Positions 4,240-53,316 of a stretch of 64,000 nucleotides of DNA are shown here, piece after piece. The DNA is from an uncultured Dehalococcoidales bacterium (GTDB lineage: Bacteria; Chloroflexota; Dehalococcoidia; Dehalococcoidales; BS750m-G39): contig CAYNGD010000006.1 in assembly GCA_964396965.1 (NCBI GenBank), forward strand, positions 8,771 to 72,770, given 5' to 3'. The notes beneath the pieces were generated by a model, which saw only the letters and a list, made by a program, of their open reading frames with translations, made no database searches and was not told the DNA's origin. The position numbers and the translations under genes are program-made. Each line of letters opens with the position of its first letter. The stretch's first letter is position 1.

Positions 4240-4572
4240 AAATTCTCCAATAAAAAAACCTCTCGCCTTAGGGGCGAGAGGTTAATCCTTCGCGGTGCCA
4301 CCCTAGTTGATTGCCAAAAAGGCAACCATCTCTCTTCGGGTACAGCCTTGGCGATACCCTGGGCTTGCTAACGGTGCCCTTCCGTCAAAGCCTACTCGGT
4401 CATCCCTTTCGGTTTGCGGCTCCCGAGTCCATTCAGCCCCGGCGCTGGCGCCGGTTTCCACCACAAGGCCCAGAAAAATCTCCGATTTTCCCGGGGACCC
4501 TCATCCGGCTCTCTGCCGCCCCGTTCTGGAGCCTACTAGTCTCGTTCTCAGCCTTTGTGCCATATTCAGTTT
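4240..4572 (-). promoter_or_regulatory. T-box riboswitch leader, tryptophan specifier (UGG)
   Basis: Minus strand shows an AGAGA box, a specifier loop GAA-UGG-A (UGG = 4431..4429), an AGUA box, and the conserved T-box AGGGUGGCACCGCG (4304..4291), which competes with the 5' arm of the terminator. The UGGC bulge fits an NCCA end with discriminator G, as in tRNA-Trp. Confidence 0.85.
4252..4282 (-). terminator. Intrinsic terminator of the T-box leader
   Basis: Minus strand reads CCUCUCGCC-CCUAA-GGCGAGAGG followed by UUUUUUU, about 20 nt before the trpE RBS/ATG. Confidence 0.8.
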
Positions 4573-4721: not shown

Positions 4722-4794
4722 GCCCGAGTGGCGCAATGGCAGCGCAACCGACTTGTAATCGGTAGGTTAGCGGGTTCGACTCCCCTCTCGGGCT
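4722..4794 (+). tRNA. tRNA-Thr (anticodon UGU)
   Basis: Acceptor GCCCGAG/CTCGGGC, D arm GCGC-AATGGCA-GCGC, anticodon arm ACCGA-CTTGTAA-TCGGT, and a TTCGACT T-loop. One imperfect pair in the T stem. No encoded CCA. Confidence 0.85.
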
Positions 4795-4814
4795 GGGATT
4801 TACTGGCGATGTGG

Positions 4815-4899
4815 GGAGGGGTGCCGGAGTGGTTAATCGGAGCAGACTGTAAATCTGCCGCCTGAAATGGCTACGCAGGTTCGAATCCTGCCCCCTCCA
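4815..4899 (+). tRNA. tRNA-Tyr (anticodon GUA), long variable arm
   Basis: Acceptor GGAGGGG/CCCCTCC, anticodon loop CTGTAAA, long variable arm, and T arm GCAGG-TTCGAAT-CCTGC. Confidence 0.9.
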
Positions 4900-4940
4900 C
4901 TGTAGCGTAAAAACTAGAAATATGGTATCTTGTTCATAGT

Positions 4941-5013
4941 GCCCACATAGCTCAGTCGGTAGAGCACCATCTTGGTAAGATGGGGGTCACCAGTTCGAAT
5001 CTGGTTGTGGGCT
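4941..5013 (+). tRNA. tRNA-Thr (anticodon GGU)
   Basis: Acceptor GCCCACA/TGTGGGC, D arm AGCTCAGTCGGTAGAGC, anticodon loop CTTGGTAAG, and T arm CCAGTTCGAATCTGG. Confidence 0.9.
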
Positions 5014-5031: not shown

Positions 5032-6237
5032 ATGGCAAAAAAGAAATTCGAGAGGACCAAGCCCCATTGCAATGTGGGCACTATCGGTCATGTTGACCAC
5101 GGCAAGACGACCCTGACCTCGGCGATTACCTTGGTGCTGTCCAAGGCGGGCCTCGCTGGATACCGCGAGTTTGGCTCCATTGATAATGCGCCCGAGGAAA
5201 AGGCGAGGGGACTGACCATCGCTATTGCCCATATTGAGTATGAGACAGAGAAACGCCATTACGCGCATATCGATTGCCCGGGGCACGCCGACTACATTAA
5301 GAACATGATAACCGGCGCTGCCCAGATGGACGGCGCCATCCTGGTGGTGGCCGCCGATGACGGGGTGATGCCCCAGACCAGGGAGCACCTCCTGCTGGCG
5401 CACCAGGTGGAGGTGCCTTATATAGTGGTCGCCCTGAATAAGGTTGACCTGGTGGATGACCCCGAGCTGCTGGAGGTGACCGAGCTGGAGCTGAGGGAGG
5501 AGCTGTTGCCCAAATACGGCTTCCCCGGCAGCGAGGTCCCCATCATCAGAGTGAGTGCTCTCAAGGTTCTGGAGTGCGGCTGCGGCAAGCGGGACTGCCA
5601 GTGGTGCGGCGCCATCTGGAAATTGATGGATGCCGTTGATAGCTATATCCCGACCCCGGTGCGGCCTAAAGACCAGCCTTTCCTGATGTCGGTAGAGGAC
5701 GTCTTCAGCATCAAGGGGCGGGGTACCGTGCCCACCGGGAGGGTGGAGCGGGGGGTGATTAAGGCCGGGGACGAGCTTGAGATAGTCGGCCTGCACCACG
5801 AGCCCCACAAGACGGTGGCTACCAGCCTGGAGATGTTCCACAAGACCCTGGACTATGCCGAGCCGGGGGACGCTGTGGGCATACTGCTGCGTGGTGTTGA
5901 CCGGGACGAGATAGAGCGGGGCCAGGTTTTGGCCGCCCCCGGCACTATCAAGCCCCATACCTACGCCGAGGCCCAGGTATATGTTTTGAGCAAGGAGGAG
6001 GGAGGCCGGCATACCCCGTTCTTCAACGGTTACAAGCCCCAGTTTTATATCAGGACTACCGACGTTACCGGGACTATCGAGTTGCCGGAAGGGGTGGAGA
6101 TGGTCATGCCCGGCGATAACATCACTATGAAGATAAAGCTTATCTATCCGGTGGCTATGGAGCAGGGCCTGCGCTTTGCTATTAGGGAAGGGGGTAGAAC
6201 GGTAGGTGCCGGTACCATTGCCAGCATCATCGAGTAA
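5032..6237 (+). CDS. tuf: Elongation factor Tu
   Basis: 401 aa with [22 protein letters not shown] and SAL motifs. Full three-domain length. Confidence 0.97.
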
Positions 6238-6441: not shown

Positions 6442-6651
6442 ATGGCCCATCGCGCTACTACCAAGCGTTCCAGGTTCAGTCTTTTTGGCGAAATCATCGC
6501 CGAGATGAAGAAGGTGGTCTGGCTCACCAGGCGAGAGGCGGCCTATTTGACCTTTATGGTCTTGGTTGTGTCCATTATCGTGGGCCTGATTCTGGGAGGC
6601 TTTGACTACGGCTTTACCAACCTGGTCAACAAGTTCTTTCTGGGCAAATAA
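6442..6651 (+). CDS. secE: Preprotein translocase subunit SecE
   Basis: 69 aa with a basic N-terminus, KKVVWLTRRE, and a single TM helix. Lies directly upstream of nusG. Confidence 0.85.
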   Translation: MAHRATTKRSRFSLFGEIIAEMKKVVWLTRREAAYLTFMVLVVSIIVGLILGGFDYGFTNLVNKFFLGK

Positions 6652-6678: not shown

Positions 6679-7233
6679 TTGGTTCAAATGAGGTTATCGG
6701 TGGCAGGCAATCAGAAAAGTTGGTTCGTCGTCCATACCTACTCCGGGTATGAAGAACGAGTTAAGAAGAACCTTGAGCAGCGCATCAAGTATATGGACAG
6801 CGGGGAGGAAATCTCCCAGGTAATCATACCCACCGAGGTGGAGATTGAGGTCAAGGAAGGGCAGCGGCGCAACGTGAACAAAAAGATACTGCCCGGCTAT
6901 ATCCTGGTTCAGATGGAGCTGAGCGACCAGAGCTGGAATATAGTGCGCAACACCCCGGGTGTTACCGGCTTTGTCGGCAGCGGCAATAAGCCCACCCCCC
7001 TTGAGGAGGGGGAGGTCAACAAAATCTTAAAGCAGATGGAGGCGGAGGCGCCCCGGGTCAGGGTCGGTTTCCGCAAGGGGCAGAGCGTGCGGGTGACCAG
7101 CGGCCCCTTCATTGACTTTGTCGGCGTGGTGGATGAAATCAGCCTGGACAAGGGCAAGGTGAAGGTGCTCCTTTCCCTCTTCGGGCGGGAGACGCCGGTT
7201 GAGCTCGACTTTTTGCAGGTGGAGAAGCTTTAG
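6679..7233 (+). CDS. nusG: Transcription termination/antitermination factor NusG
   Basis: Shows [11 protein letters not shown] (NGN domain) and a C-terminal KOW ([11 protein letters not shown]). Start is uncertain: TTG 6679, ATG 6688, or GTG 6700. The last has a GAGG 6 nt upstream. Confidence 0.92.
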
Positions 7234-7655
7234 TGGCCAAGAAGATTGCCGCGGTAATTAAACTGCAGATTCAGGCGGGGAAGGCCACCCCGGCGCCGCC
7301 GGTAGGCCCGGCCTTGGGACAGCACGGGCTTAATATCATGGCCTTCTGCAAGGAGTACAACGAGCGCACTGCTGGCCAGGAAGGCTCTATCATCCCGGTG
7401 GAGATAACCGTATTCGAGGACCGCTCCTTTACCTTCATCACCAAGACGCCGCCGGCTACCGATCTGCTCAAGAAAGCGTCCGGCCTGGAGAAGGGTTCGG
7501 TCAGTCCCGGCCACGAAAAGGCGGGCAGGATAACCCGGGCCCAGCTCAGGGAGATAGCCCAGCTTAAATCTAAAGATTTAAACGCCAACAGCATCGAGGG
7601 GGCGGAGCGAATCATCGAGGGCACCGCCTGCAGCATGGGTATTGAGGTGGAATAA
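7233..7655 (+). CDS. rplK: 50S ribosomal protein L11
   Basis: 140 aa reading [37 protein letters not shown] start overlaps the nusG stop. Confidence 0.95.
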
Positions 7656-7657
7656 AT

Positions 7658-8371
7658 TTGGCCAAGCACGGTAAGAAATATAACGAGGCACTAGCCCTGG
7701 TGGACCGGGCCAGGCTCTATGAGCCCGCCGAGGCCATCGAGATGGCCAAGAAGGCGGCCTATACCAAGTTCGATGAGACGGTTGAGCTTCACCTGCGGAT
7801 GGGGATTGACCCCCGCGACGCCACCCAGCAGGTGCGCGGGGTAGCTTTATTGCCCCACGGGCTGGGCAAGAAGGTGCGGGTGCTGGTCTTTGCCCAGGGT
7901 GAGGCGGCCAGGAATGCCGAGAGCGCCGGCGCCGACTACGTCGGCGGTGACGACCTGGCTAAAAAGATTGAGGGGGGCTGGCTGGACTTTGACGTCACCA
8001 TCGCCACCCCGGATATGATGGGCAAGGTGGGCCGGCTGGGTAAGATCCTGGGGAGGCGGGGGCTGATGCCCAACCCCAAGTCGGGGACGGTGGTGGCCGG
8101 CGAAGACCTGCCCCGGGCCATCAACGAGGCCCGCCAGGGGCGGGTGGAGTTCAAGCTGGACCGGACGGCTATCATTCATCTCCCGCTGGGCAAGGCCAGT
8201 TTTGAGACGGATAAGCTGCTGGCCAACCTCACCGCCGTTATCGAGGCGGTGACCCGGGCCAAGCCCGCCGGGGCCAAGGGGCAGTATATCAAGACGGCCA
8301 CTTTAACCACCACCATGGGGCCGGGCTTTAAGCTCGACCTGAGACCAACCCTGTCGCTAACCTCCAGTTAG
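7658..8371 (+). CDS. rplA: 50S ribosomal protein L1
   Basis: 237 aa. TTG start with a GAGGTGGA RBS. Typical L1 sequence ([25 protein letters not shown]). Confidence 0.95.
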
Positions 8372-8401
8372 TAAAATCTAGACTGCAAAGGGGACGTTGA
8401 T

Positions 8402-9553
8402 ATGGAAGATGTTGCTATTATTGGTGCCGGACAGAGCGCCTTCAGCCGTAGCTGCGGTGAGTCTATCCGGGAGCTAGCTTTCGAGGCCTACAAGGAGGCG
8501 ATGGCAGGGCTGGATATCACCGGTGACAATATCGACGCCTCGGTTATCTGCTCGGCGCCGGAATATGATAAACAGCGCTCGCCTTCGGGCCTGATTTCGG
8601 AGTACCTGGAGCTGACCCCCAAGCCCACCTTCTATATTGAGACGGTCTGCTCCTCGAGCAGCACGGGCTTAAGGGTGGCCTGGTCGCTGATAAAGGCCGG
8701 GCTGCACCAGGTGGTAGCGGTAGTCGGCTTCCAGAAGATGTCCGAGCTCTCCTCCCGTGACGCCGCCGAGAGGATGGGGCGGGGGGGAGACATAATCTGG
8801 GAGTCGCCCTTCGGAATCACCATGCCCGCCGGCTACGCCATGTACGCCCGGGCCCATATGGAAAAGTACGGCACCACTGAGGAACAGATGGCTAAAATCC
8901 GGGTCAAGAACTCCCACTACGGGGCGACCAACCCCAAGGCCAACTACCGCAAGGAGCTGAGCCTGGAGGATATTTTAAATTCGGAGATGATAACCAGCCC
9001 CTTAAAGAAGTTTGACTGTTGCGCCAACGCCGACGGCTCCTCCTGCGTCATCCTGGCCCGGGGCGACGTGGCTAAGAGCATCACCAAGAAGCCCATCTGG
9101 GTTATCGGCCTGGGGGCGGCCACCGATACCATGAGCATGGCCGGAAGGCAGTCGCTCACCGGGCTGCGCTGTGCTCAGGAGGCGGCCAGGCAGGCCTATA
9201 AGATGGCCGGGGTCAAGCCCCGGGACATTGACGTGGCCGAGGTCCACGACTGCTTTACCATCTCCGAGATTCTGGCCTACGAAGACCTTGGCTTCGCCAA
9301 GCCCGGTGAGGGGGCGGGGCTGATTGAGGACAAAGAGACCTACGCCGACGGCAAGATACCGGTAAACGTTGATGGCGGCCTGCTCTCCAAGGGGCACCCA
9401 ATCGGTGCTACTGGCGGCTCGCAGATTCGGACTATCGTCCGCCAGCTGCGTGGGGCGGCCACCGAGGCCCAGGTGAAGAACGCCGAGATAGGTCTGGTGC
9501 ACAATATCGGCGGCGTCGGGCAGTACGGCAACGTCACCATTTTGAGGAGGTAG
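8402..9553 (+). CDS. SCP2/archaeal-type thiolase (acetyl-CoA C-acyltransferase-like)
   Basis: 383 aa with nucleophile Cys in ETVCSSSS, plus VHDCF, GHPIGATG and HNIGG motifs typical of the DUF35-associated thiolase family. Confidence 0.85.
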   Translation: MEDVAIIGAGQSAFSRSCGESIRELAFEAYKEAMAGLDITGDNIDASVICSAPEYDKQRSPSGLISEYLELTPKPTFYIETVCSSSSTGLRVAWSLIKAGLHQVVAVVGFQKMSELSSRDAAERMGRGGDIIWESPFGITMPAGYAMYARAHMEKYGTTEEQMAKIRVKNSHYGATNPKANYRKELSLEDILNSEMITSPLKKFDCCANADGSSCVILARGDVAKSITKKPIWVIGLGAATDTMSMAGRQSLTGLRCAQEAARQAYKMAGVKPRDIDVAEVHDCFTISEILAYEDLGFAKPGEGAGLIEDKETYADGKIPVNVDGGLLSKGHPIGATGGSQIRTIVRQLRGAATEAQVKNAEIGLVHNIGGVGQYGNVTILRR

Positions 9554-9556
9554 TTA

Positions 9557-9970
9557 ATGGGCTTTGAGAATTTCGGCACGGTCAGCTTTACTTCAGAGGC
9601 CAAGGTAACCGATTTCATCACCCAGCTGGAGGCGGGCAAAGTGATGGCCACCCGCTGCCGCCAGTGCGGGGGCAGCTACTTTCCCCCCAAGGCGGACTGC
9701 CCCAAGTGCCTCTCCAGTGATGTTGAGTGGTTCGAGGTTAAGAGCACGGGTAAGCTCCTGAGCTATACCGTGGTCAACTACGGCCCCACCGGTTTCGAGA
9801 ACGACGCCCCCTATATCCTGGCTCTGGTGCGGTTTTACGAGGGCATCCAGATTCTGGCCCGTCTTAGCCGGGATATCGCCGAGAAGGATATTAAGGTCGG
9901 TATGAGTCTTAAGGTCAGTCCGGTAAGGCTGGCCGATAACAGGATTGCCTACCAATTTAGCAGAGCCTAA
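9557..9970 (+). CDS. DUF35 protein (Zn-ribbon plus OB-fold)
   Basis: 137 aa with CRQCGGSYFPPKADCPKC (CxxC-x10-CxxC) followed by an OB-fold-like C-terminus. Only 3 nt downstream of the thiolase. Confidence 0.8.
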   Translation: MGFENFGTVSFTSEAKVTDFITQLEAGKVMATRCRQCGGSYFPPKADCPKCLSSDVEWFEVKSTGKLLSYTVVNYGPTGFENDAPYILALVRFYEGIQILARLSRDIAEKDIKVGMSLKVSPVRLADNRIAYQFSRA

Positions 9971-9984
9971 CAAGGAGGACAATC

Positions 9985-11391
9985 ATGGTTGGTATTACCT
10001 CATACGGCGCTTATGTGCCCCTCTACCGGCTGAGCCGGGAGGCGGTAGCCAGGGGCGCCCGCGGCGAGAAGGCGATATGTAACTTCGATGAGGACAGCAT
10101 CACAATGGCGGCGGCGGCGGCTATCGACTGCCTGACCGGCCTTGACCGGGAGAAGATTGACGGGCTCTATTTGGCCACCACCACCTCCCCCTACAGGGAG
10201 AAGTCGGGGGCGACTATCGTGGCCATGGCCGCCGACCTCAGAGAGGAAATCCTTACCGCCGATTTCGCCCATTCCCTGCGGGCGGGGACATCGGCATTCA
10301 GGTCAGCTATTGATGCGGTCAAGGCAGGCTCGGCCAAGAGGGTGCTGGTGACGGCGGCTGACTGCCGTCTGGGGCTTCCCGGCTCGGTCTATGAGCAGAA
10401 CTTCGGTGACGGTGCCGGTGCCCTCCTTATCGGCGACACTAATGTTATCGCCAACATTGAAGATAGTTACTCGGTCTATAACGAGATAACCGACGTCTGG
10501 CGATCTGCCGGCGACACCTTTATCCGTTCCTGGGAGGACCGCTTTACCACCACCCACGGCTACGCCACGGCGGTGAGCGAAGCGGTATCAGGGCTATTAA
10601 AGAAGACCGGCCTGAAGCCGGCCGATTTCGCCAAGGTTGTTCTCTATACCCCGGACGCCCGCCGCAGCGCCGACGTGGCTAAAAGACTGGGCTTTGACCC
10701 CAAGACCCAGCTCCAGGACCCCTTATTTAATTTTCTGGGCAACACCGGCAGCGCCCTCCCCCTGATGCTGCTGGCGGCGGCGCTGGAGGAGGCCAAGGCG
10801 GGCGACAGGATACTGCTGGCCAGCTACGGTAACGGCAGCGATGCCTTTGTCCTCCAGGTGACCGAACAGATAGCCAAAATCAAGCCCCGGCGCGGAATGA
10901 AGGGGCATCTGGCCTCGAAGAAGGTAATGGATGATTACCGCCAGTACCTCATCTGGCGGGGAATCCTGCCGATAGAGCCGCGCAAGGAGACGGTGGCCTT
11001 TATCTCCGCCCCGGCCCTGTGGCGGGAGCGAGACGCCAACCTGCGTCTGCGCGGGGTCAAGTGCAAGGTCTGCGGCACCATCCAGTTCCCGCCGCAGCGG
11101 GTCTGCATCAAGTGCCACAGCAAAGACCAGTTCGAGCCCTACCGCCTGTCGGACAAGAAGGCCAAGATATTCACCTTCTCCATGGACTATATCACCTATC
11201 CGGTGCTGGAGCGGCCGGTGGTCAACGTCACCGTTGACTTCGAGGGTGGGGGCAGGGCGCTACTGTATATGACCGACCGCGAGGCGGAGCAGGTCAAGTG
11301 CGGCCTGCCGGTGGAGATGAGCTTCAGGAAGCTGATGGTCAGGGACGGCATCCACAACTATTACTGGAAGGCGATGCCCTTAAGGACATAA
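9985..11391 (+). CDS. Archaeal-type HMG-CoA-synthase-like protein fused to a C-terminal DUF35 domain. Catalytic residues appear substituted.
   Basis: 468 aa. The N-terminal ~345 aa align by eye to archaeal HMGCS (VGITSYGAYVP, DVWR, GNTGSA, LASYGNGSDAF). The C-terminus carries CKVCGTIQFPPQRVCIKC plus an OB fold. The expected Glu/Cys/His positions read T/L/Y. Confidence 0.8.
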   Translation: MVGITSYGAYVPLYRLSREAVARGARGEKAICNFDEDSITMAAAAAIDCLTGLDREKIDGLYLATTTSPYREKSGATIVAMAADLREEILTADFAHSLRAGTSAFRSAIDAVKAGSAKRVLVTAADCRLGLPGSVYEQNFGDGAGALLIGDTNVIANIEDSYSVYNEITDVWRSAGDTFIRSWEDRFTTTHGYATAVSEAVSGLLKKTGLKPADFAKVVLYTPDARRSADVAKRLGFDPKTQLQDPLFNFLGNTGSALPLMLLAAALEEAKAGDRILLASYGNGSDAFVLQVTEQIAKIKPRRGMKGHLASKKVMDDYRQYLIWRGILPIEPRKETVAFISAPALWRERDANLRLRGVKCKVCGTIQFPPQRVCIKCHSKDQFEPYRLSDKKAKIFTFSMDYITYPVLERPVVNVTVDFEGGGRALLYMTDREAEQVKCGLPVEMSFRKLMVRDGIHNYYWKAMPLRT

Positions 11392-11419
11392 GCGACAGAA
11401 TAAAGGGGGAGGTAACCCT

Positions 11420-12598
11420 ATGGTAGGCATTAAAGATAGAGTGGCCATAGTGGGTATGGGTTGTACCCAGTTCGGCGAGCTCTGGGATAAAAGTCATAAA
11501 GATCTGCTGGTTGAGGCCTGCTACGAGGCCTTCGAGGACGCTGGCATCGAGCCCAAGGACATTCAAGCTGCCTGGTACGGCAGCCGCGAGACCGGCTTTA
11601 CCGGCACCCAGCTGGCCAATGCCATAAAGCTGGACTATATACCGGTCAGCCGGGTGGAGAACTTCTGCGCCGGCGGCACCGATACCTTCCGTAATGCCTG
11701 CTATGCCGTGGCCAGCGGCGTCTGTGAGATCGCCCTGGCAGTGGGGGTGGAGAAGTGCAAGGACCACTACGGCGGCTTCTGCATGGACATTCTCGACCCC
11801 TTTGACCGCAGCATGGTGGAGTGGGAACTGCCCCCGGCCAGTCAGTTCGCCCTGCTGGCCACCAGGTATATGCACCACTACGGCTGGAAGTACGAGGACT
11901 TCAAGCGGATACTCTCCATGATTGACGTCAAGAACCATCACAACGGCACCATGTCCCCCAAGGCCCAGTTCCGGCGGGAGATAACCATAGAGCAGGCCAT
12001 GAACGCCCCCATGATTTCCTACCCGCTGGGACTGTATGATGCCTGCGGGGTGAGCGATGGTTCGGCGGCGGCCATTATCACCACCCCTGAGATTGCCAAA
12101 AAGATGAGAAAAGACTACGTCCTGGTAAAGGCTTTAGCCCTGACCAACGGTGCCGGCCAGGCGGTAATGCAGCCGGAGTACAATTTTATCTCCATCCCGG
12201 AGACGGCAACCGCTGCCGAGCACGCCTACAGAGAGGCGGGTATAACCAAACCCCGCCATGAGATAGACGTGGCCATAGTCCATGACTGTTTTTCCATTAC
12301 CGAGCTGATGACCATGGAGGACCTGCAGTTCAGCCCCAGGGGTAAGGCCCCGGAGGATGTTGAGGCTGGCACCTTTACCCTGGAGGGAGAGCTGCCGGTT
12401 AATACTGACGGGGGGCTGAAATGCTTTGGCCATCCCCTTTCGGCCAGCGGGCTGAGGATGATTTATGAAGTCTACAAGCAGCTGCAGGGTAAGGCCGGCC
12501 CCAGGCAGCTGAAGAAAGCGGATATGGGTCTAACCCATAATGTGGGAGGTATCTGCGGCTTCTTTAACTGCACCGTGGCTTTGTTCGGTAGACCATAA
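11420..12598 (+). CDS. SCP2/archaeal-type thiolase (second copy)
   Basis: 392 aa with a Cys nucleophile in ENFCAGGT, plus VHDCF, GHPLSASG and HNVGG. Confidence 0.85.
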   Translation: MVGIKDRVAIVGMGCTQFGELWDKSHKDLLVEACYEAFEDAGIEPKDIQAAWYGSRETGFTGTQLANAIKLDYIPVSRVENFCAGGTDTFRNACYAVASGVCEIALAVGVEKCKDHYGGFCMDILDPFDRSMVEWELPPASQFALLATRYMHHYGWKYEDFKRILSMIDVKNHHNGTMSPKAQFRREITIEQAMNAPMISYPLGLYDACGVSDGSAAAIITTPEIAKKMRKDYVLVKALALTNGAGQAVMQPEYNFISIPETATAAEHAYREAGITKPRHEIDVAIVHDCFSITELMTMEDLQFSPRGKAPEDVEAGTFTLEGELPVNTDGGLKCFGHPLSASGLRMIYEVYKQLQGKAGPRQLKKADMGLTHNVGGICGFFNCTVALFGRP

Positions 12599-12650
12599 TC
12601 TGCTATAATAATACAAAATATATAAAATATTCCGGTGACAGCGGGTGCCG

Positions 12651-12774
12651 TCAGGGCTTAATAGACTGCCTGCCGAGGAGATAGAAGGCTTGAAGGTTAA
12701 GTCCTTGTGCGGCAGGCGCAGGGACTTGCTTTTTTAGGCGGATATCAAGTAGTGTTAATCGGGGGTTAAGGGAG
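12651..12774 (+). promoter_or_regulatory. Putative rplJ (L10) leader / attenuator
   Basis: Hairpin AAGTCCTTG...CAGGGACTT (12699..12727) followed by TTTTTT (12730..12735). Upstream CTGCCTGCCG can pair alternatively with CGGCAGGCG. Sits immediately before the rplJ RBS. Confidence 0.45.
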
Positions 12775-13299
12775 ATGTCCAGGGAAAAGAAAACGGAGAT
12801 TATCGAAAACCTGCAAGAGCTGTTTACTAGGTGCAGCGTGGCCATTCTGGCTGACTACCGGGGCCAATCGGCTAACCAGATGACCGAGCTGCGCCGCCGG
12901 CTCGGGGAGGCAGGGATTGACTTTAAGGTGGTCAAGAACACGCTGGCCAGCTTCGCCGCCCAGAGGTCGGGGAGGGAGGAGCTTTCCGGTTTCTTCGAGG
13001 GGCCGGTGGCGATTGCCTTCGGCTACGGCGATATCAACGGGCCGGCCAAGGCCTTGGCCGGCTATATCGAAGAAACGAAGGCCGGCATGACCATCAAGGG
13101 GGGCTTTTTAGCCGACCGGCTGCTTACCAAAGAGGAGGTAACCACCCTTTCTACTCTGCCATCGAAAGAGGTGTTACTAGCCAGGGTTGTGGGTGGGGTG
13201 CAGGGCCCCATCTCGGCCCTGGTCAGCCAGCTGGCTGACCCGATGACGGGGCTTATAGCTGGACTACAGGCGAGAATTCAACAACTGGAGGGAAGATAA
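12775..13299 (+). CDS. rplJ: 50S ribosomal protein L10
   Basis: 174 aa with typical L10 sequence ([19 protein letters not shown]). Followed by rplL. Confidence 0.93.
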
Positions 13300-13300
13300 G

Positions 13301-13915
13301 ATGCCACAAGAAGAAGCCAAAGGCAAAAAAACGGCCAAGGCCGAAGCCAAGGCTGAGGTAGAGGAACCCAAGGCTGAGGCTAAGGTAGAGGAAGCTAAGC
13401 CTGAGGTAGAGAAACCCGAAACCAAGCCTGAGGTAAAAGAACCTGAAGCTAAAGCTGAAGCAAAGGAACCCGCCGCCAAGGCTGAACCTGAAGCTAAGCC
13501 TGAGGCCAAGGAGGCCAAAGCCAAGGCCGGGGCGAAGAGCTCGGCTGCTGTTGAGCAGATAATGGCCAGCATCAAGAAGATGACGGTGCTTGAGCTATCG
13601 GAGCTGGTCAAGGCGCTGCAGGAAGAGTTCGGCGTCAGCGCTCCGGTAGCGGTAGCGGCACCGGCGGCAGCCGCCGCCGAGGCGGCCCCAGCCGCTGAGG
13701 AGAAGACGGAGTTCAGCGTTATTCTCAAGGAAGTCGGGGCTAACAAGATCAGCGTCATCAGAGCGGTGAGGGAGGTGACCACCCTCGGCCTCAAGGAGGC
13801 CAAGGACTTCGTGGAGAGCGCCCCTCAGACGGTAAAAGAAGGGATTAACCAGGAAGAGGCCAATAACATAAAACAGAAGCTGGAAGCGGCCGGGGCTAGC
13901 GTAGAGATTAAATAA
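13301..13915 (+). CDS. rplL: 50S ribosomal protein L7/L12 with an ~80 aa K/E/A/P-rich N-terminal extension
   Basis: The C-terminal ~125 aa are canonical L12 ([19 protein letters not shown] ... [14 protein letters not shown] ... AGASVEIK). ATG 13301 has a GGAGGGA RBS 7 nt upstream. The internal Met88 (13562) has no SD. Confidence 0.9.
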
Positions 13916-17818: not shown

Positions 17819-19027
17819 ATGGCTGGGCCTTTAGACGGGGTCAGGGTGGTGGAGATAACCATGTTTCAGCAGGGGCCGGTGGCCGGTATGAGGTTGGGTG
17901 ACCTGGGTGCCAAGGTGATTAAGGTTGAGGCTAAGACCGGAGACCCAGGTAGAGGGATGATGAGGATGGTCGGCGTCGATGCCGGCCTAAAGGGGCGAAA
18001 CTATTACTTTGAGAGCAATAACCGCAACAAGAGGAGCATCGTCCTTGACCTTAAGACGAGAAAGGGGATGAAGGTATTCTTAAAGCTGATTGACCGGGCT
18101 GATGTCTTTCTGACCAACATGAGCATCGAGGCACCGCAGAGGATGGGCATCAGCCCCGAGGTGTTGCTCAAGAGAAATCCACGGTTGATCTATGCCCATG
18201 CCTCCGGATGGGGCCGTAAAGGCCCGGATGCCAGCGAGCTTTCCTTCGACTATACCGGCATTGCCCGGTCGGGGACGATGATGATGTGTGGGGAGAGGGG
18301 TGATCCGCCGGGAATCCTGATACCGGGTATGGGTGATGAGCAGGGTGGGCTTATCTGCGCCTGGGCGGTGACCGCCGCCCTCTATGCACGGGAGAAGACA
18401 GGCCGGGGGCAGCTGGTCGATACCTCTTTGATGGGCAGCCTGATTTCCCTGCACGGGGTCAGCTTCTCGGCGCCTGGGGTTCTGGGACAGGAGTTCCCCA
18501 GACTACTCAGGTCGGAAGCGGGCAACCCGATTTATAACCACTATGGGTGTAAGGACGACAAATGGATTGTCTTGGCTCACCTCCAGCCCGACCGGTACTG
18601 GCCCAATGTCTGCCGGGCGATGGGGCTGGAGGAGCTGGAGCATGACCCCAAATTTAGCACGATAGAAGCCAGGCACGATAATGCCAGGGAGCTGGTGGCT
18701 ATCCTGGACGAGAGGTTCGCCACCAGGACCAGGGATGAATGGATGGAGATTTTTAAGAGGGAGGATGTAATCTATACCCCGGTCCAGTCAGCCAGCGAGG
18801 TCTTTGAGGACGGACAGGCGCTGGCCAATGACTATATCATCCCGGTTGACCATCCGGTCTGGGGCAGGATAAAGATGCTGGGCTTCCCCTGGACATTCCA
18901 CGAGACACCAGCCTCGGTGCAGAGGGAGGCCCCCGAGCTCGGCCAGCACACCGAGGAGATTCTGCTGGAGCTGGGCTATAGCTGGGAGGATATCGCTGCT
19001 TTAAAGAATGAAGAGGCGATACCTTAA
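17819..19027 (+). CDS. Class III (CaiB/BaiF family) CoA-transferase
   Basis: 402 aa with LDGVRVVEITMFQQGPVAGMRLGDLGAKVIKVE at the N-terminus and family-typical length. Confidence 0.88.
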   Translation: MAGPLDGVRVVEITMFQQGPVAGMRLGDLGAKVIKVEAKTGDPGRGMMRMVGVDAGLKGRNYYFESNNRNKRSIVLDLKTRKGMKVFLKLIDRADVFLTNMSIEAPQRMGISPEVLLKRNPRLIYAHASGWGRKGPDASELSFDYTGIARSGTMMMCGERGDPPGILIPGMGDEQGGLICAWAVTAALYAREKTGRGQLVDTSLMGSLISLHGVSFSAPGVLGQEFPRLLRSEAGNPIYNHYGCKDDKWIVLAHLQPDRYWPNVCRAMGLEELEHDPKFSTIEARHDNARELVAILDERFATRTRDEWMEIFKREDVIYTPVQSASEVFEDGQALANDYIIPVDHPVWGRIKMLGFPWTFHETPASVQREAPELGQHTEEILLELGYSWEDIAALKNEEAIP

Positions 19028-19047
19028 AGGCTGCTAAAAGGATGAGT

Positions 19048-19076
19048 TTGACAATAGCGCTTTTATATGTTAAGAT
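19048..19076 (+). promoter_or_regulatory. Sigma-70-type promoter of leader L2
   Basis: TTGACA (19048..19053), a 17 nt spacer, then TAAGAT (19071..19076). Confidence 0.5.
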
Positions 19077-19082
19077 TAGGTT

Positions 19083-19295
19083 TGCTTAAATATGGATGAG
19101 AATAAGATGTTAAATATCGCCTTCCAGGACTATTATTACGCCTATTATTTTACACCGAAAGGTGTGCTTGGGAGGTTTGCGGCCTGAAGCAGGGTAGTTA
19201 AGAGCTAAAAATAAACAGGAAAGCTAAAAGGAACCCTCCCAAGCGGGAGGGTTCTCCGTTTTTAGGAATATAACCAAAGGAGGACTAAAAATCAA
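19083..19295 (+). promoter_or_regulatory. Structured 5' leader L2, paralogue of L1
   Basis: Terminator AACCCTCCC-AAGC-GGGAGGGTT plus CTCCGTTTTT (19232..19263). Upstream GCTTGGGAGG (19166..19175) is an exact complement of CCTCCCAAGC in the terminator 5' arm. Confidence 0.5.
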
Positions 19296-20237
19296 GTGAC
19301 CGAAAGAATGGTTAAAAGAAGGTATGAAATCTTTACCATTGCCCCCAACTTTTACCAGCTGGGTACCCCCTCCTATCCGGCCTATCTGACGATGGGGGAT
19401 AAAGGGATGATTATCGAGGGGGGCACCGGGGCTACCTTTCCCATTATCGTTGCCCAGCTCCGGGAGCTGGGCAACGAGCCGGAGCGGATAGAATACGTTG
19501 CCCTTACCCATACCCACCCCGACCATTTCGGCGCCGTACCGCACCTAAAGAAGCTGTGGCCTCATCTGAAGGTTATCGCCAGCGACCTGGCGGCTAAGCT
19601 GCTGCAGAAGGAAGAAGTCATCAAGGACTTTGTCCGCATGGATCGCACCATCGCCGAGATTCTGCTGGTCAAGGGCGATATCGACTGGTGGCCCGTCGAG
19701 CTGGAAAACCCGGTCTTCAAAATTGATAGGATTGTCGGCGAGGGGGATAAGATAGACCTCGGTTCGGGTATGGTATGGACCGTTTATGAAACGCCGGGGC
19801 ATTCGCCCTGCCATATCTCCTTTCACAACGAAAGGGATGGCATACTGGTTATCGGGGACGCCACCGGGATATACGAGCCCGACAAAGAGGTCTTCTGGCC
19901 TAACTATTTCCAGTCCCTGGAGGAGTACTGCAACAGCATTCGCAAGCTGGCGGTGCTGCCGGCTAGGATAGGCGCCCGCAGCCACGGCGGTGTTGTCGGA
20001 GGGGAACCCGGGCACTATTTGCGGAGGGTTATAAAAGCTACCGAGGCTTATCACCGCGAGCTGATGGACCGGCTGGCTGGCGGTGAGAGTCCTGAGGCGA
20101 TTGCCCTGGATAAGGCGAAGTGGGTATATACCTTCACCAACCTACAGCCCTTTAAGCTGATACATGCCATGACCGGGCTTACCCTCAGGCTTTCTCAGGC
20201 GGCGGATGGTAAAGAAGGCCTGTTTGGTGTCCCCTGA
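19296..20237 (+). CDS. MBL-fold metallo-hydrolase
   Basis: 313 aa with the HTHPDH (HxHxDH) motif plus later His/Asp ligands. Start codon is uncertain because the RBS is 12 nt from the GTG. Confidence 0.8.
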   Translation: MTERMVKRRYEIFTIAPNFYQLGTPSYPAYLTMGDKGMIIEGGTGATFPIIVAQLRELGNEPERIEYVALTHTHPDHFGAVPHLKKLWPHLKVIASDLAAKLLQKEEVIKDFVRMDRTIAEILLVKGDIDWWPVELENPVFKIDRIVGEGDKIDLGSGMVWTVYETPGHSPCHISFHNERDGILVIGDATGIYEPDKEVFWPNYFQSLEEYCNSIRKLAVLPARIGARSHGGVVGGEPGHYLRRVIKATEAYHRELMDRLAGGESPEAIALDKAKWVYTFTNLQPFKLIHAMTGLTLRLSQAADGKEGLFGVP

Positions 20238-20279
20238 ACTCAGGCAAGGTGTTATAATACAGCGAAGAGGAGTAACGTT

Positions 20280-21437
20280 ATGCCAAGTGAGGCTATTGGC
20301 GGGCTGATGGCAGCCGATAAATACTACCAGGACTACGGCGCCAGGGCCAGAGAGCTTAAGAAGCAGGGGAAAAAGATAATAGGCTACCTGTGCGCCTTTA
20401 CCCCGGTGGAGATCATCACCGCCGCCGGCCTAGTGCCTTTCCGGATAAAAGGAGATGTTAACGAGCCCATCACTAAGGCCGATACTGAGATGGAGACCAT
20501 CGTCTGCCCCCTGGTGCGGAGCTGCTTTGATATGGCGCTTAAGGGAAACTATGAGTTCCTTGACGGCATCGTCATCCCCCACGCCTGTGACAGCATCTCC
20601 CGGACCTACGATGTCTGGAAGTATTCACTGAACCTCCCCTACTCCCATTTCATCAATATGCCCCACAGCACCGACGGGCCGTCACTCGAATTTTACAAGG
20701 CGCTGCTGGGCACGTTAAGGAAGAGCCTGGCCAAGTTTGCCGGAAGAGAGATTTCCGACCAGGACTTGAGAGAGGCAATAAAGCTCTACAACCAGAACCG
20801 GGCTAAAGTGCGGGAGCTGTATGAGCTGAGGAAGGCCTCGCCGCCCCTGATATCGGGTGCGGAGATAACCAGGGTGTTGGTAGGGGCAATTAGCCTGCCG
20901 GTTGAGGAGGCCACCCGGCTCGTTGACAGCGTTATCGAAGAGGTCAAGCAGCGGCCGCCGCTACCGGCCAAGGCAGCCCGGCTGATGGTGGTTGGTGCCG
21001 AGGTTGACGATATTGCCTTCATCGACCTCATCGAGGACAGCGGGGCCTGGGTGGTGGCCGACGACCTCTGCCCCGGGGCGAGGGAGTTCTGGGCCGATGT
21101 TGAGGTCACCAAGAATCCGATTGACGGCATCGCCGAGCGGTATTTAAGGAAGATAAACTGCGGCCGGACCTTCCGTGAGAGAAAAGGGAGCTATGACGAC
21201 TATCTCGAGGAGAGGTTCGGGCATATCGGGCGTTTTATTAAAGAATTTAAGGTGGATGGGGTGGTGCTCTATATTTACAAGTACTGCGACCCTTACGGCT
21301 TCGACGTGCCGCCGATGAAGGGCTACATCGAATCTAAGGGAACGCCGGTGCTCTACCTTGAGGACGAGTATTCCATGTCCACCATCGGCAGGCTCAGGAC
21401 CAGAATTCAGGCCTTCCTGGAATTGATTGCTAAATAG
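20280..21437 (+). CDS. Benzoyl-CoA reductase / 2-hydroxyacyl-CoA dehydratase family subunit (BzdN/BcrC/HgdB-like)
   Basis: 385 aa HGD-D-type sequence (IGYLCAFTPVEIITAAGLVPFRI, conserved Cys in CPLVRSC, PHACDS). Confidence 0.85.
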   Translation: MPSEAIGGLMAADKYYQDYGARARELKKQGKKIIGYLCAFTPVEIITAAGLVPFRIKGDVNEPITKADTEMETIVCPLVRSCFDMALKGNYEFLDGIVIPHACDSISRTYDVWKYSLNLPYSHFINMPHSTDGPSLEFYKALLGTLRKSLAKFAGREISDQDLREAIKLYNQNRAKVRELYELRKASPPLISGAEITRVLVGAISLPVEEATRLVDSVIEEVKQRPPLPAKAARLMVVGAEVDDIAFIDLIEDSGAWVVADDLCPGAREFWADVEVTKNPIDGIAERYLRKINCGRTFRERKGSYDDYLEERFGHIGRFIKEFKVDGVVLYIYKYCDPYGFDVPPMKGYIESKGTPVLYLEDEYSMSTIGRLRTRIQAFLELIAK

Positions 21438-21458
21438 TAGTTTATAAGGAGAACGGTT

Positions 21459-22796
21459 ATGACCGAGGAGAAGAAACCGGAGGAGAGAAAAAAGAGGAGG
21501 ACGGCCACCGAGGCGGCGGCCAAGATAGGGCCGATGGCCAAGGCGATGAACGCCGCCGTGCTTCAGGCGAGCCAGGATGGCGAGCCGATAGCCTACTCCT
21601 TTATCTACAGCGGCTATGACGAAATCATCCGGGCGATGGATATCGTCCCCGCCTGGACGGAGAACTACGCCGGAATCTGCGGTGCCAAGCGCGATGCCCA
21701 GCGGTTCCTGGAGAGGGCGGAGGGGGAGAACTTCTCCCGCTCCCTCTGCACCTACGCCCTCTGCGGCCTGGGCTTTGACAACTGGCGCGAGGAGCTGGGG
21801 GAGATGCCCCTGGATGCCCCCTGGGGTGGGCAGGCCCGGCCCACGGTGATGCTGGGCAGCGGCCAGGTCATCTGCGACCCCAGGTACAAGTGGTACCAGG
21901 CGGCCCAGCACTATATGACCGACGTGCCGGTCTATGTCGGCGGGCTGCCCTATCCCCCCTATGAGGAGGACTACGACTACCGCGAGGTGCAGGACTACTA
22001 CGTGAAATATATCGTCGGGGAGCTGCGGGGGCTGGTCGAGTTTCTGGAGAAGAATACTAATAGAAAGATGGACTGGGAGCGCTTGAGCCAAGTGGTTGAC
22101 ATCAGCGACCGCACCTGGAACACGATTTCCGAGGCCTACGACCTGCGCAAGGCGGTGCCCTGCCCGATGGGCACCGGCGACGCCATGAATACCATGGTGC
22201 CGATGACCTTCATGATGGGAACCCAGGAGGCCCTGGACTTCTTCAAGGACCTATATGATGAGCTTAAGTGCAAGATAGCCAACAAAGAGGGCGTAATTCC
22301 CGACGAGAAATACCGGCTGCTCTGGGGTGGGGGGCTGCCCTCGTGGTTTGCCCTGACTGATTTTAACTACTTCAACAGCAGGGGGGCGGTCTTTCCCGCC
22401 GAGACTACCTACCGGCTGCTGGAGCCGGTCTATAAGCTGGACTTACCTAAGGTCAGCGACCCACTGGAGCACCTGGCCTGGCGCTGGGTGAGGTACTGGA
22501 CCTGTCGTCATGACAGGGCCAGGAAACGCCCGGGCTCTACCCCTGAGGTTGAGCGCCTTATTGAGTATATCGAGGAATACAAGATAGACGGGGTGGTGAT
22601 GCACGAGGCCTTCTCCTGCCGCAGCTGGCACCCCGGCCTGATATGGCAGCTTAACCAGCTCAAACGGGTCTATAGTGATATACCATCGCTGGTTCTGGAG
22701 AGCGATATCGTTGACATCAGCTCCTATAACGAGGCCGACACCAGGGCCAGGATAGATGCCTTCATCGATACCCTGGAGGCGGTCAAGAGCCGGTGA
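21459..22796 (+). CDS. Benzoyl-CoA reductase / 2-hydroxyacyl-CoA dehydratase family subunit (BzdO/BcrB/HgdA-like)
   Basis: 445 aa, second HGD-D-type subunit with conserved Cys residues (SLCTYALCG, AFSCRSW). Tightly linked to its neighbours. Confidence 0.85.
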   Translation: MTEEKKPEERKKRRTATEAAAKIGPMAKAMNAAVLQASQDGEPIAYSFIYSGYDEIIRAMDIVPAWTENYAGICGAKRDAQRFLERAEGENFSRSLCTYALCGLGFDNWREELGEMPLDAPWGGQARPTVMLGSGQVICDPRYKWYQAAQHYMTDVPVYVGGLPYPPYEEDYDYREVQDYYVKYIVGELRGLVEFLEKNTNRKMDWERLSQVVDISDRTWNTISEAYDLRKAVPCPMGTGDAMNTMVPMTFMMGTQEALDFFKDLYDELKCKIANKEGVIPDEKYRLLWGGGLPSWFALTDFNYFNSRGAVFPAETTYRLLEPVYKLDLPKVSDPLEHLAWRWVRYWTCRHDRARKRPGSTPEVERLIEYIEEYKIDGVVMHEAFSCRSWHPGLIWQLNQLKRVYSDIPSLVLESDIVDISSYNEADTRARIDAFIDTLEAVKSR

Positions 22797-23638
22797 AAAG
22801 CCAGTATTTCGCCGGGGTTGACATCGGTTCCACCATGACCAAGGTGGTCATCATGGACCAGGCGACCCTGGCCTCGGTTATCGGCCCCACCGGCCCCGAG
22901 CACCGCAAGCTGGCCAACCGGGTGATGGAGGAGGCGCTAGGCAAGGCCGGACTTGCCTTCGAGGAGATAACCTACCTGGTGGCCACCGGCTACGGGCGGA
23001 TCAACGTCCCCTTCGCCGACAGGCAGATAACCGAGATATCCTGCCACGCCCGGGGGGTGGCCCACCTGCTGCCCGGGGTGAGGACGGTGATTGACATCGG
23101 CGGCCAGGACAGCAAGGGAATCAAGCTCAAAGACGGGCGGGCGGTGGACTTCGTTATGAACGACAGGTGCGCCGCCGGCACCGGCCGCTTTCTGGAGGTG
23201 ACCGCCGAGAGCCTCGGCGTCAGCCTGGAGGAGATGGGTAAATTAGCGCTGGAGGCTAAGAATAAGGTGGAGATAGGCAGCACCTGCACCGTCTTCGCCG
23301 CCCAGGAGGTAGTGGCCAAGCTCTCCGAGGGGGCGGCGCTGGCCGATATCATCGCCGGCCTGCACGAGGCGATTGCTACCCGGATATACGGCATGGTCCG
23401 GCGCCTGAAGATAGAGAGGGAGGTGGCCCTGACCGGCGGCGGGGCTAAGAATATTGGCCTAGTTAAGTCTATGGAAGCTAAACTGGGCTTCCCGGTGCTG
23501 CTGCCACCGGAGCCGCTGCTCACCGGGGCTATCGGGGCGGCGCTGCTGGGTGGGGATATAGTCAAGGAGGCGGAGAAGAAGGGAGAGAAACTAAAGAAAA
23601 GCCCCCGTCGCCTCACTGAGGCTACCTTGTTTACATAA
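22793..23638 (+). CDS. BcrAD/BadFG/HgdC-type ATPase (electron-activating subunit 1)
   Basis: 281 aa with GVDIGSTMTK, DIGGQDSK, cluster Cys motifs RCAAGTGRFLE and STCTVFA. GTG start overlaps the upstream stop (GTGA). Confidence 0.88.
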   Translation: MKSQYFAGVDIGSTMTKVVIMDQATLASVIGPTGPEHRKLANRVMEEALGKAGLAFEEITYLVATGYGRINVPFADRQITEISCHARGVAHLLPGVRTVIDIGGQDSKGIKLKDGRAVDFVMNDRCAAGTGRFLEVTAESLGVSLEEMGKLALEAKNKVEIGSTCTVFAAQEVVAKLSEGAALADIIAGLHEAIATRIYGMVRRLKIEREVALTGGGAKNIGLVKSMEAKLGFPVLLPPEPLLTGAIGAALLGGDIVKEAEKKGEKLKKSPRRLTEATLFT

Positions 23639-23653
23639 TATAGGAAGAAAATC

Positions 23654-24439: not shown

Positions 24440-24440
24440 T

Positions 24441-25832: not shown

Positions 25833-25833
25833 T

Positions 25834-52391: not shown

Positions 52392-52691
52392 TTAGAGAAT
52401 CTCCAGGGTAGCCCTGGTGCCGGCTTTGGCCGCTTTCACCCTTATCAGGGTGCGCATGGCCTGGGCGACACGGCCCTGACGGCCAATAATTCTCCCCTTA
52501 TCCTCCTCGGCGACCTGTAGCTTGAGTATGATGCCCTGCTCATCGGTTTCCTCGGTGACGGTAACCTCATCGGGTACGTTCACGATGGATTTGGCGATGA
52601 ATTCGACTAGTTCCTTCATACCTTTTACTTCTTTCGGGCTTTCTTGTGTCTCCGGGGCCTCCTGTTCTTCCGGGTTTTCTTGGTCTTTCAT
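52392..52691 (-). CDS. KH-domain RNA-binding protein (YlqC/UPF0109-like)
   Basis: 99 aa with [17 protein letters not shown] (GxxG KH motif). Directly downstream of rpsP (ATGA overlap). Acidic N-terminal extension. Confidence 0.8.
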
Positions 52692-53251: not shown

Positions 53252-53316
53252 TTTATTTCCTTTTTCTCCACAGGGTATTATGCGGTATAACGGCTTGCTT
53301 GTCAATGGCTGGGTTT

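Follow-up and report, generated by a model that had tools for sequence, protein, structure and literature searches.

Organization of the rplA-rplJ region

In a window of 64,000 nt from an uncultured Dehalococcoidales bacterium (contig CAYNGD010000006.1), which is the whole stretch of DNA analysed here, four protein-coding genes lie on the forward strand between the ribosomal protein genes rplA and rplJ. They encode, in order, a thiolase (ThlA), a free DUF35 protein, a fusion of a domain resembling hydroxymethylglutaryl-CoA (HMG-CoA) synthase (HMGCS) with a second DUF35 unit (Fus), and a second thiolase (ThlB). With moderate confidence, we consider that the cluster specifies two DUF35-scaffolded thiolase complexes that would act on acyl-CoA and not in the mevalonate pathway, and that its genes probably constitute the 3' end of the secE-nusG-rplKA transcription unit.

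An earlier, sequence-only reading of this DNA had described the cluster, the nature of its four products and a gap of 30 nt after rplA. The cluster is real and the identities are correct, since the order of the open reading frames (ORFs) and the Pfam and NCBIfam matches agree (Table 1), and the length of the gap is exact. That reading also gave rplJ a leader of its own, beginning at about 12651, a position that falls inside the L10 leader recognized by Rfam. Upstream of the cluster, the + strand carries three tRNA genes, tuf, secE, nusG, rplK and rplA, while the intergenic gaps within it measure 3 nt (thlA-duf35), 14 nt (duf35-fus) and 28 nt (fus-thlB).

Table 1. Genes and signals of the rplA-rplJ region, with their positions in the window
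Feature	Position	Strand	Support
tuf	5032-6237	+	ORF list
secE	6442-6651	+	ORF list
nusG	6679-7233	+	ORF list; packed against rplK
rplK	7233-7655	+	ORF list
rplA	7658-8371	+	ORF list; Pfam Ribosomal_L1 1.9e-65; tblastn synteny across 20+ loci
Spacer rplA-thlA, 30 nt, Shine-Dalgarno AAAGGGGA at 8387-8394	8372-8401	+	Sequence reading, consensus scan
thlA, 383 aa	8402-9553	+	Pfam Thiolase_N/C_1; NCBIfam PRK06064, 440 bits vs cutoff 420
duf35, free DUF35 protein, 137 aa	9557-9970	+	Pfam zf-ChsH2 9.4e-12, OB_ChsH2_C 1.1e-15
fus, HMGCS-like::DUF35 fusion, 468 aa	9985-11391	+	NCBIfam PRK04262 (1-328); Pfam zf-ChsH2 + OB_ChsH2_C (353-448)
thlB, 392 aa	11420-12598	+	NCBIfam PRK06157, 549 bits vs cutoff 403
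Putative rplJL promoter	12581-12609	+	Read from sequence
L10 leader RF00557	12614-12740	+	Rfam, 57.8 bits vs gathering score 44; directly upstream of rplJ
rplJ	12775-13299	+	Pfam Ribosomal_L10
rplL	13301-13915	+	Pfam Ribosomal_L12_N, Ribosomal_L12

Transcriptional context of the cluster

The spacer between rplA and thlA is too small to hold a promoter together with a leader, and a consensus scan found neither a promoter nor a terminator in it on the + strand, as had been noticed before. Across the 16 insertion-bearing loci examined (the window and 15 others, labelled here with L numbers), the spacer measures 20-83 nt and holds the conserved Shine-Dalgarno sequence AAAGGGGA, and a terminator after rplA is absent from all of them. 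The scan of the window likewise detected no terminator after thlB.

At the other end of the cluster the rplJL promoter can be read. A -35-like TTGTTC (12581-12586) lies in the last codons of thlB and is followed, after a 17-nt spacer, by the extended -10 element TGCTATAAT (12601-12609), which starts within 3 nt of the thlB stop codon (12596-12598). The TTGTTC box of the window is under the -35 threshold of the scan tool; in 12 related loci a -10-like box occupies the corresponding position. The L10 leader itself holds a terminator-like hairpin (12698-12728) with a T-run. An Rfam search that covered 10 related loci placed RF00557 directly after thlB in eight of them (L001, L004, L007, L010, L011, L012, L023 and L140) and directly after rplA in L132, which is free of the insertion, and in several relatives the leader match begins at the thlB stop codon itself.

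The five insertion-free relatives give the counterpart of this layout. Three of them carry, 26 nt after the rplA stop codon, the hairpin AAGAGGGGCGTAAGCCCCTCTT followed by a T-run, which has the appearance of an intrinsic terminator (L208, 3960-3981; L209, 2633-2654; L210, 6255-6276). Ahead of the L10 leader, all five have a TG-extended -10 and four a TTTAC(A/C) -35; promoter scan scores reach 10 or 11 of 12 in L208-L210, the L208 element TTTACA-17-TG.TATAAT scoring 11/12.

The cluster thus spans precisely the stretch from the end of rplA to the -35 element of the putative rplJL promoter, with the usual terminator absent. Because rplJL keeps its own promoter, two transcription units are present, and the cluster is better described as a 3' extension of the rplKA unit than as a break in a single rplKA-rplJL operon. 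Its position, together with the lack of a terminator before or after it, makes co-transcription with secE-nusG-rplKA likely. The sequence-only reading had already suggested co-transcription with ribosomal genes; the comparison with the insertion-free sister lineage, which has a terminator after rplA, makes it likelier.

In the tufB-secE-nusG-rplKA-rplJL-rpoBC region of Escherichia coli, L11 and L10 each have a promoter of their own, rplA is not followed by a strong terminator, and the L10 leader mediates autoregulation. The window resembles it in the order tRNAs-tuf-secE-nusG-rplK-rplA...rplJ-rplL and in the presence of an rplJL promoter and an L10 leader; it differs in that metabolic genes amounting to 4.2 kb separate rplA from the L10 promoter and in that rpoBC does not follow rplL. 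The three tRNA genes upstream of tuf (4722-5013, +) also recall the layout of the E. coli tufB operon.

Conservation and history of the placement

The order tuf-secE-nusG-rplK-rplA-thlA-duf35-fus-thlB-rplJ is identical in four metagenome contigs (L001-L004), and the same order from tuf to rplJ occurs in eleven loci (L007-L017) from ten species-representative Dehalococcoidia metagenome-assembled genomes (MAGs). A more divergent four-gene contig (L140) is cut at thlA, and another one (L194) starts within fus and shows only fus-thlB-rplJ. Dehalococcoidia-like loci at a greater distance have other contents in this slot: rplA-fus-thlB-fus-thlB-rplJ in L023 and rplA-fus-thlB-rplJ in L051, with partial versions in L061, L114 and L096.

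In a neighbour-joining tree of 89 fusion proteins the clade of the window is monophyletic, while the Fus copies of L023 and L051/L061 belong to three further lineages, which they share with copies encoded away from ribosomal genes. A bootstrapped tree of NusG, L11 and L1 puts all these organisms in one clade with 100% support, inside which a core clade, also supported at 100%, is formed by all the four-gene lineages and one insertion-free lineage (L132, L208-L211), itself supported at 100%. A tblastn search of the rplA-rplJ gaps of this last lineage, which are unusually long (404-771 nt), found no remnant of thiolase or Fus (best E 0.75), so that a loss looks the same there as an insertion never gained. 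Two histories fit, namely an early occupation of the slot with later replacement by paralogues and one loss, or a repeated capture of different paralogues, and the distance trees from which they were compared cannot choose between them.

To calibrate these observations, metagenomes were scanned with the conserved DNA motif of the L10 leader, which yielded 120 loci. In 54 of them rplA is found 186-629 nt upstream of rplJ; in 26, from low-GC organisms, unrelated genes precede rplJ; ThlB is upstream of rplJ in four; and in two low-GC contigs another single gene lies between rplA and rplJ, encoding a PGA_cap protein (L129, 2837-4087) or a ThrE exporter (L091, 2114-3349). These counts show the adjacency of rplKA and rplJL to be the rule, though not a universal one, and the rplA/rplJ junction to be a boundary between operons at which the gene order is occasionally disrupted. 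The presence of thiolase modules at this junction is specific to this group of Dehalococcoidia.

Literature searches returned nothing that joins DUF35 with Dehalococcoidia, or Dehalococcoidia with mevalonate and HMG-CoA synthase, and nothing relevant on rplKAJL or Chloroflexi. The sequence-only reading had allowed that the arrangement might prove to be widespread and already assigned to the mevalonate pathway: it is indeed widespread, within one clade, but the literature searched holds no such assignment. As far as the searchable literature shows, the conserved placement is unreported, although the kinds of enzymes involved are already known.

A different explanation of the placement is that the cluster has its own promoter, in or just after rplA, that it is transcribed independently, and that it represents a neutral insertion inherited at an operon boundary. 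A weak -10-like TAAAAT at 8372-8377 could belong to such a promoter, but the 16 loci share no -10/-35 pair, and their spacers, down to 20 nt in length, hold a Shine-Dalgarno sequence only. It is true that rplKA and rplJL are separate units, that their boundary can be invaded (the PGA_cap and ThrE loci) or rplJ unlinked (the 26 loci mentioned above), and that one lineage lost or never had the insertion; on the other hand, the post-rplA terminator of that lineage is missing in every insertion-bearing locus, and the occurrence of different Fus-ThlB paralogues in the same slot of deeper lineages fits drift poorly. We regard an independently transcribed, neutral insertion as rather unlikely, though more probable than the other alternatives to the extension of the rplKA unit. 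If the latter is correct, the conserved placement behind rplA predicts constitutive co-expression with ribosomal proteins in bacteria that are abundant in sediments, and the sister lineage, with a terminator instead of the insertion, offers a natural comparison.

The thiolases and their DUF35 partners

ThlA is a thiolase of the SCP2/archaeal type and ThlB one of the SCP2 type. Both look catalytically competent from their motifs: the nucleophilic cysteine is Cys83 in each (VCSSS in ThlA, FCAGG in ThlB), and the histidines of the HDCF and GHP motifs are His282 and His332 in ThlA and His288 and His338 in ThlB. The nucleophile and the two motifs are invariant in 14 ThlA orthologues and in 77 ThlB homologues. 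Among structures of the Protein Data Bank (PDB), ThlA matches 7yvy_A (3e-72) and 6esq_A (1.3e-61), and so does ThlB (2.6e-59 and 7e-57, respectively). Each of the 120 best database matches to ThlA shares 84% identity or more with it, so that the search covered close relatives and does not reveal a wider origin of the ThlA module.

The free DUF35 protein is composed of a Cys4 zinc ribbon (CRQC...CPKC) and an OB fold and is presumed to be the scaffold partner of ThlA; in fact, its gene always adjoins thlA, both in the relatives and in the Bathyarchaeia locus L038. A role of this protein in translation, by analogy with the Sulfolobus factor Trf (PMC6996347), is unlikely because its best match is the thiolase-bound DUF35 of 6ESQ (6esq_E, 5e-15), compared with 3.7e-07 for 6htj_A, a weaker DUF35-family match that we take to be Trf, and because the pairing with thlA is constant.

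Known pairs of the same kind are the benzoylsuccinyl-CoA thiolase BbsAB (7PXP) and Saci_1121/1120 of Sulfolobus acidocaldarius (bioRxiv 10.1101/2024.07.05.601840), which share with ThlA-DUF35 the two-gene layout, the thiolase motifs and the zinc-ribbon/OB scaffold; unlike them, ThlA-DUF35 has no reductase or dehydratase partners encoded beside it. An identity with BbsAB itself was rejected, since the NCBIfam BbsA and BbsB models score far under their cutoffs (42 vs 250 and 174 vs 750 bits). A role as steroid side-chain retro-aldolase (Ltp2/Sal) was also discarded: the nucleophilic cysteine is present in both thiolases and neither DUF35 unit is fused to a MaoC hydratase.

Two modules and their genomic company

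The distribution of fus relatives was surveyed in one genome per species, giving 257 loci, the best 80 of which were examined. Wherever there is enough flank, a ThlB-type thiolase gene adjoins the fusion gene in essentially every locus, after it or, in Bathyarchaeia, before it, and in about 70 loci other than those described above this pair stands alone, usually without ThlA or a free DUF35 protein. The hosts are Dehalococcoidia, Desulfobacterota (Syntrophales, Desulfobacterales), Nitrospinota, Acidobacteria, Bacillota, Bathyarchaeia and other archaea, and many genomes have several Fus copies (for example, L010, L024 and L050 all come from one MAG).

Since the Fus-ThlB pair occurs alone in so many loci, and since ThlA and ThlB are only 32% identical, the cluster is composed of two old and separate modules, ThlA/DUF35 and ThlB/Fus; two complexes, the formation of which we infer, are the simplest reading. 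The idea that the thiolase and DUF35 parts are duplicates of each other does not hold, given this low identity, the fact that the two DUF35 units are alike in little beyond the zinc ribbon, and the separate pairing of Fus with ThlB and of ThlA with DUF35.

For the non-redundant loci, all ORFs up to 6 kb away from the fusion gene were clustered and the recurrent families annotated. The most frequent neighbours of Fus-ThlB are an acyl-CoA dehydrogenase (14 loci), a family III CoA-transferase (9) and an enoyl-CoA hydratase (8), followed by a short-chain dehydrogenase (SDR), an AMP-forming acyl-CoA ligase, a methylmalonyl-CoA-mutase-like protein and, mostly in Bathyarchaeia, an aldehyde:ferredoxin oxidoreductase (6 loci each), and by a FadB-like fusion (4). 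Moreover, the Bathyarchaeia locus L038 (4260-11413) encodes, in order, a ThlA-like thiolase, a DUF35 protein, an F420-dependent oxidoreductase, 3-hydroxybutyryl-CoA dehydrogenase (hbd), crotonase (crt), a ThlB-like thiolase and a Fus-like protein. Together, the neighbouring families and the L038 cluster place the modules in short-chain acyl-CoA metabolism, of the butyrate or beta-oxidation type. The ThlA-like thiolase of L038 is 69% identical to ThlA of the window, and this locus suggests that both modules may have moved between domains by gene transfer.

The joint presence of both modules with hbd and crt in L038 also bears on the possibility that the four proteins belong to a single hetero-complex, in which an intermediate would pass from one thiolase site to a second, different one, for example in two consecutive steps of thiolysis or condensation. 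More than 13 lineages have kept the four genes together and contiguous, and DUF35 proteins are known to connect different enzymes with one another in archaeal complexes of HMGCS and of fatty-acid synthase (bioRxiv 10.1101/2024.07.05.601840); in most genomes, however, Fus-ThlB does without a second module, and in sister lineages this pair fills the slot unaccompanied by ThlA-DUF35, which makes a single complex improbable in comparison with two separate ones.

The HMGCS-like domain of Fus

Fus is composed of an HMGCS-like domain (residues ~1-330) and a C-terminal DUF35 unit (~345-468), the zinc ribbon of which is formed by C360, C363, C374 and C377. The two parts match 6esq_I (7e-38, residues 2-328) and 6esq_E (5e-16, residues 345-466), and Fus is equally close to PhlA (5m3k_A, 2e-36; 9skh_A, 8e-37). 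The catalytic tetrad was located with the HMGCS of M. thermolithotrophicus (6ESQ chain I, numbering from PMC12960953) as reference: in a HMMER alignment its residues E82, C114, H238 and N270 correspond to T66, L98, Y221 and N253 of Fus. Three of the four catalytic residues of HMG-CoA synthase are thus lost and only the asparagine is retained.

The same replacements are found throughout the family. Among 89 non-identical Fus homologues extracted from related loci, the position of the glutamate is occupied by Thr (85 proteins), Ser, Asn or Ala and that of the cysteine by Leu (78), Ile or Thr, none of the 89 having Cys or Glu at the catalytic positions, while the four cysteines of the zinc ribbon are invariant. 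By these residues the HMGCS-like domain of Fus is classified as a conserved pseudoenzyme. With T66, L98 and Y221 in the active site Fus would be unable to make HMG-CoA, so that neither archaeal-type channelling nor a role in mevalonate synthesis would apply. An AlphaFold2 model of Fus from an alignment of 16 sequences was poor (mean predicted local distance difference test score, pLDDT, 59; predicted template modelling score, pTM, 0.55), and no structural conclusion was drawn from it.

Ratios of nonsynonymous to synonymous substitution rates (dN/dS), computed against the two closest relatives (L001 and L007; dS 0.5-1.1), are 0.04-0.05 for thlA, 0.06-0.07 for thlB, 0.08-0.10 for duf35 and 0.10-0.11 for fus, with 0.11 for its HMGCS-like part alone. 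The corresponding values are 0.045 for tuf, 0.08-0.09 for rplA, 0.10-0.12 for rplJ and 0.20-0.25 for the neighbouring MFS transporter. The four cluster genes are under purifying selection as strong as that on the neighbouring ribosomal genes, and these low ratios indicate that the pseudoenzyme domain of Fus is being maintained and is not decaying.

The catalytically dead Fus passes the cutoff of PRK04262, the NCBIfam equivalog for HMGCS (254 vs 244 bits), and public records call its homologues 'hydroxymethylglutaryl-CoA synthase'. To judge from the residues given above, this naming is likely a systematic misannotation, which could lead metabolic reconstructions of uncultured Dehalococcoidia to infer a false entry step into the mevalonate pathway.

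Relation to known thiolase/HMGCS/DUF35 systems

The cluster had been said to recall the archaeal channelling complex of thiolase, HMGCS and DUF35 (6ESQ/6ET9). The homology is confirmed by the matches to its chains A, E and I. All three protein families recur, with the DUF35 zinc ribbon and OB fold and the thiolase Cys, HDxF and GHx motifs, and ThlB/Fus combines the full set of archaeal parts in only two polypeptides. The channelling part of the comparison falls, because the archaeal HMGCS is active, converts channelled acetoacetyl-CoA into HMG-CoA and serves the mevalonate pathway, whereas its counterpart in the window is fused to DUF35, appears dead and has no mevalonate genes nearby. In the archaeal complex, HMG-CoA is no longer formed once the tetrad is mutated (PMC12960953).

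A closer relative has been described by Liao et al. (Nat Commun 2026, PMC12960953), who mined 1,030 bacterial HMGS/ACAT/DUF35 loci, 1,001 of them without secondary-metabolism partners, and assayed the ACAT/HMGS-DUF35 complex of Pseudomonas fluorescens. In this complex the fused HMGS-DUF35 lacks the E-C-H-N tetrad and the ACAT has the Cys, HDxF and GHx motifs; it formed neither HMG-CoA nor acetoacetyl-CoA from acetyl-CoA but cleaved acetoacetyl-CoA thiolytically, and an H294Y change in the HDxF motif of the ACAT abolished the cleavage (PMC12960953). The fused type is therefore not new, being already described and assayed. ThlB/Fus agrees with each sequence feature of the P. fluorescens type, as judged from the published description: an HMGS-like::DUF35 fusion, loss of HMGS residues, an adjacent and apparently competent SCP2-type thiolase, and no polyketide synthase (PKS) or nonribosomal peptide synthetase (NRPS) neighbours. 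The window differs from P. fluorescens in the retained asparagine (N253), in the second thiolase+DUF35 module and in the rplKA/rplJL setting, and the family as surveyed here occurs widely, is strongly constrained by purifying selection and is associated with beta-oxidation genes. In the authors' view, the P. fluorescens complex is an evolutionary intermediate that has no defined role (PMC12960953).

The same three kinds of subunits also occur in Friedel-Crafts C-acyltransferases, such as PhlACB of Pseudomonas protegens (5M3K/5MG5) and MucABC/SmaATase (9VBO), in which an HMGS-like structural subunit without catalytic residues is accompanied by a thiolase-like catalytic subunit and by DUF35. As an enzyme of this kind, ThlB/Fus would transfer acetyl groups to a small-molecule acceptor of secondary metabolism. 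In favour of this, the similarity of Fus to PhlA equals that to archaeal HMGCS, and Fus and PhlA have both lost the catalytic residues. This is nonetheless very improbable: PhlC and MucB lack the HDxF histidine (PMC12960953), act on small-molecule acceptors and belong to biosynthetic clusters, whereas HDCF is kept in ThlA, ThlB and all their homologues, the setting points to primary metabolism, the conserved neighbours elsewhere are beta-oxidation enzymes, and no PKS or NRPS genes are found near the cluster, where the neighbours are ribosomal genes, the MFS transporter and ComM.

Least credible of all, and refuted at the sequence level, is a bacterial complex of the archaeal type that makes HMG-CoA for mevalonate entry: the best PDB matches to three chains of 6ESQ/6ET9, the PRK04262 score and the public names speak for it, but Thr, Leu and Tyr have taken the place of Glu, Cys and His, none of the 89 homologues has Cys or Glu there, archaeal tetrad mutants and the P. 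fluorescens homologue make no HMG-CoA (PMC12960953), and no mevalonate-pathway gene was found among the ~50 scanned ORFs of the window.

Proposed function

We propose that two thiolase complexes operate side by side. The first would be ThlA with the free DUF35 protein, resembling BbsAB and the archaeal ketothiolase/DUF35 pairs, and the second ThlB with Fus, in which the HMGCS-derived domain would be a purely structural partner fused to its own DUF35 clamp. In both, the thiolase cysteine would be acylated and the histidines of HDCF and GHP would catalyse thiolysis or Claisen chemistry on a short 3-oxoacyl-CoA. The reaction that appears most likely is acetoacetyl-CoA + CoA <-> 2 acetyl-CoA, in beta-oxidation or in butyrate-type acyl-CoA metabolism, with no formation of HMG-CoA. 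Read-through from rplKA would run into the L10 leader and end at its hairpin attenuator or pass it, and expression of the cluster would be constitutive and tied to the synthesis of ribosomal proteins.

Several points weigh against this proposal. A promoter could still lie inside the 3' end of rplA. Codon usage gave no sign of high expression for the cluster, nor for the ribosomal genes: the codon-adaptation index, with tuf and ribosomal genes as reference, failed to separate even the reference genes and is uninformative on expression level. The substrate chain length and the direction of the reaction are deduced from what surrounds the genes in other genomes, together with the assay of a single homologue from a distant bacterium. 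Finally, no other steps of beta-oxidation are encoded near the cluster, the nearest CoA-related genes beginning at 17819, past an oppositely oriented gene.

That the family has a real and probably important physiological function is indicated by its size in bacteria and archaea, the fixed replacement residues, the strong purifying selection and the company of beta-oxidation genes. The sole assayed member had been read as an intermediate without a role, and the evidence presented here favours a mature and functional class of enzymes. A bolder version, which we hold to be doubtful, is that the dead-HMGCS::DUF35/thiolase pair is a mature housekeeping thiolase class that, with a second DUF35-thiolase, has been wired into a ribosomal-protein unit, maybe as one super-complex; if this were true, a central acetyl-CoA/acetoacetyl-CoA flux would be co-regulated with ribosome synthesis.

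Other features of the window

A set of genes for CoA-ester metabolism is present at 17819-27123 (+), encoding a family III CoA-transferase, a metallo-beta-lactamase-fold protein, two HGD-D subunits and two BcrAD/BadFG ATPases, and then an FAD-linked oxidase and a CCG/Fe-S protein. The set is of the 2-hydroxyacyl-CoA dehydratase or benzoyl-CoA-reductase-like kind and suggests a CoA-ester fermentation of 2-hydroxy acids or amino acids in the same organism. On the minus strand, a T-box leader (4267-4558) is found ahead of the trpEGDC genes.

Some of the translation proteins encoded in the window are also unusual. The rplL product, of 204 aa, has about 80 residues rich in Lys, Glu, Ala and Pro before the L12 N-terminal domain (Pfam match from residue 85); this extension is kept as an open frame in relatives, where the length of the protein varies (190, 169, 203 and 160 aa). 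Ribosomal protein S16 (52688-53305, -; 205 aa) continues beyond its S16 domain (residues 26-84) in a C-terminal tail of about 110 aa, again rich in Lys, Glu, Ala and Pro and matching the L12 extension in composition. EF-Tu carries a four-cysteine motif at residues ~181-193, which may be a metal-binding insertion; the motif is present in 19/19 related Dehalococcoidia-like loci with tuf, with all four cysteines in every one but L061 (HGCG...).

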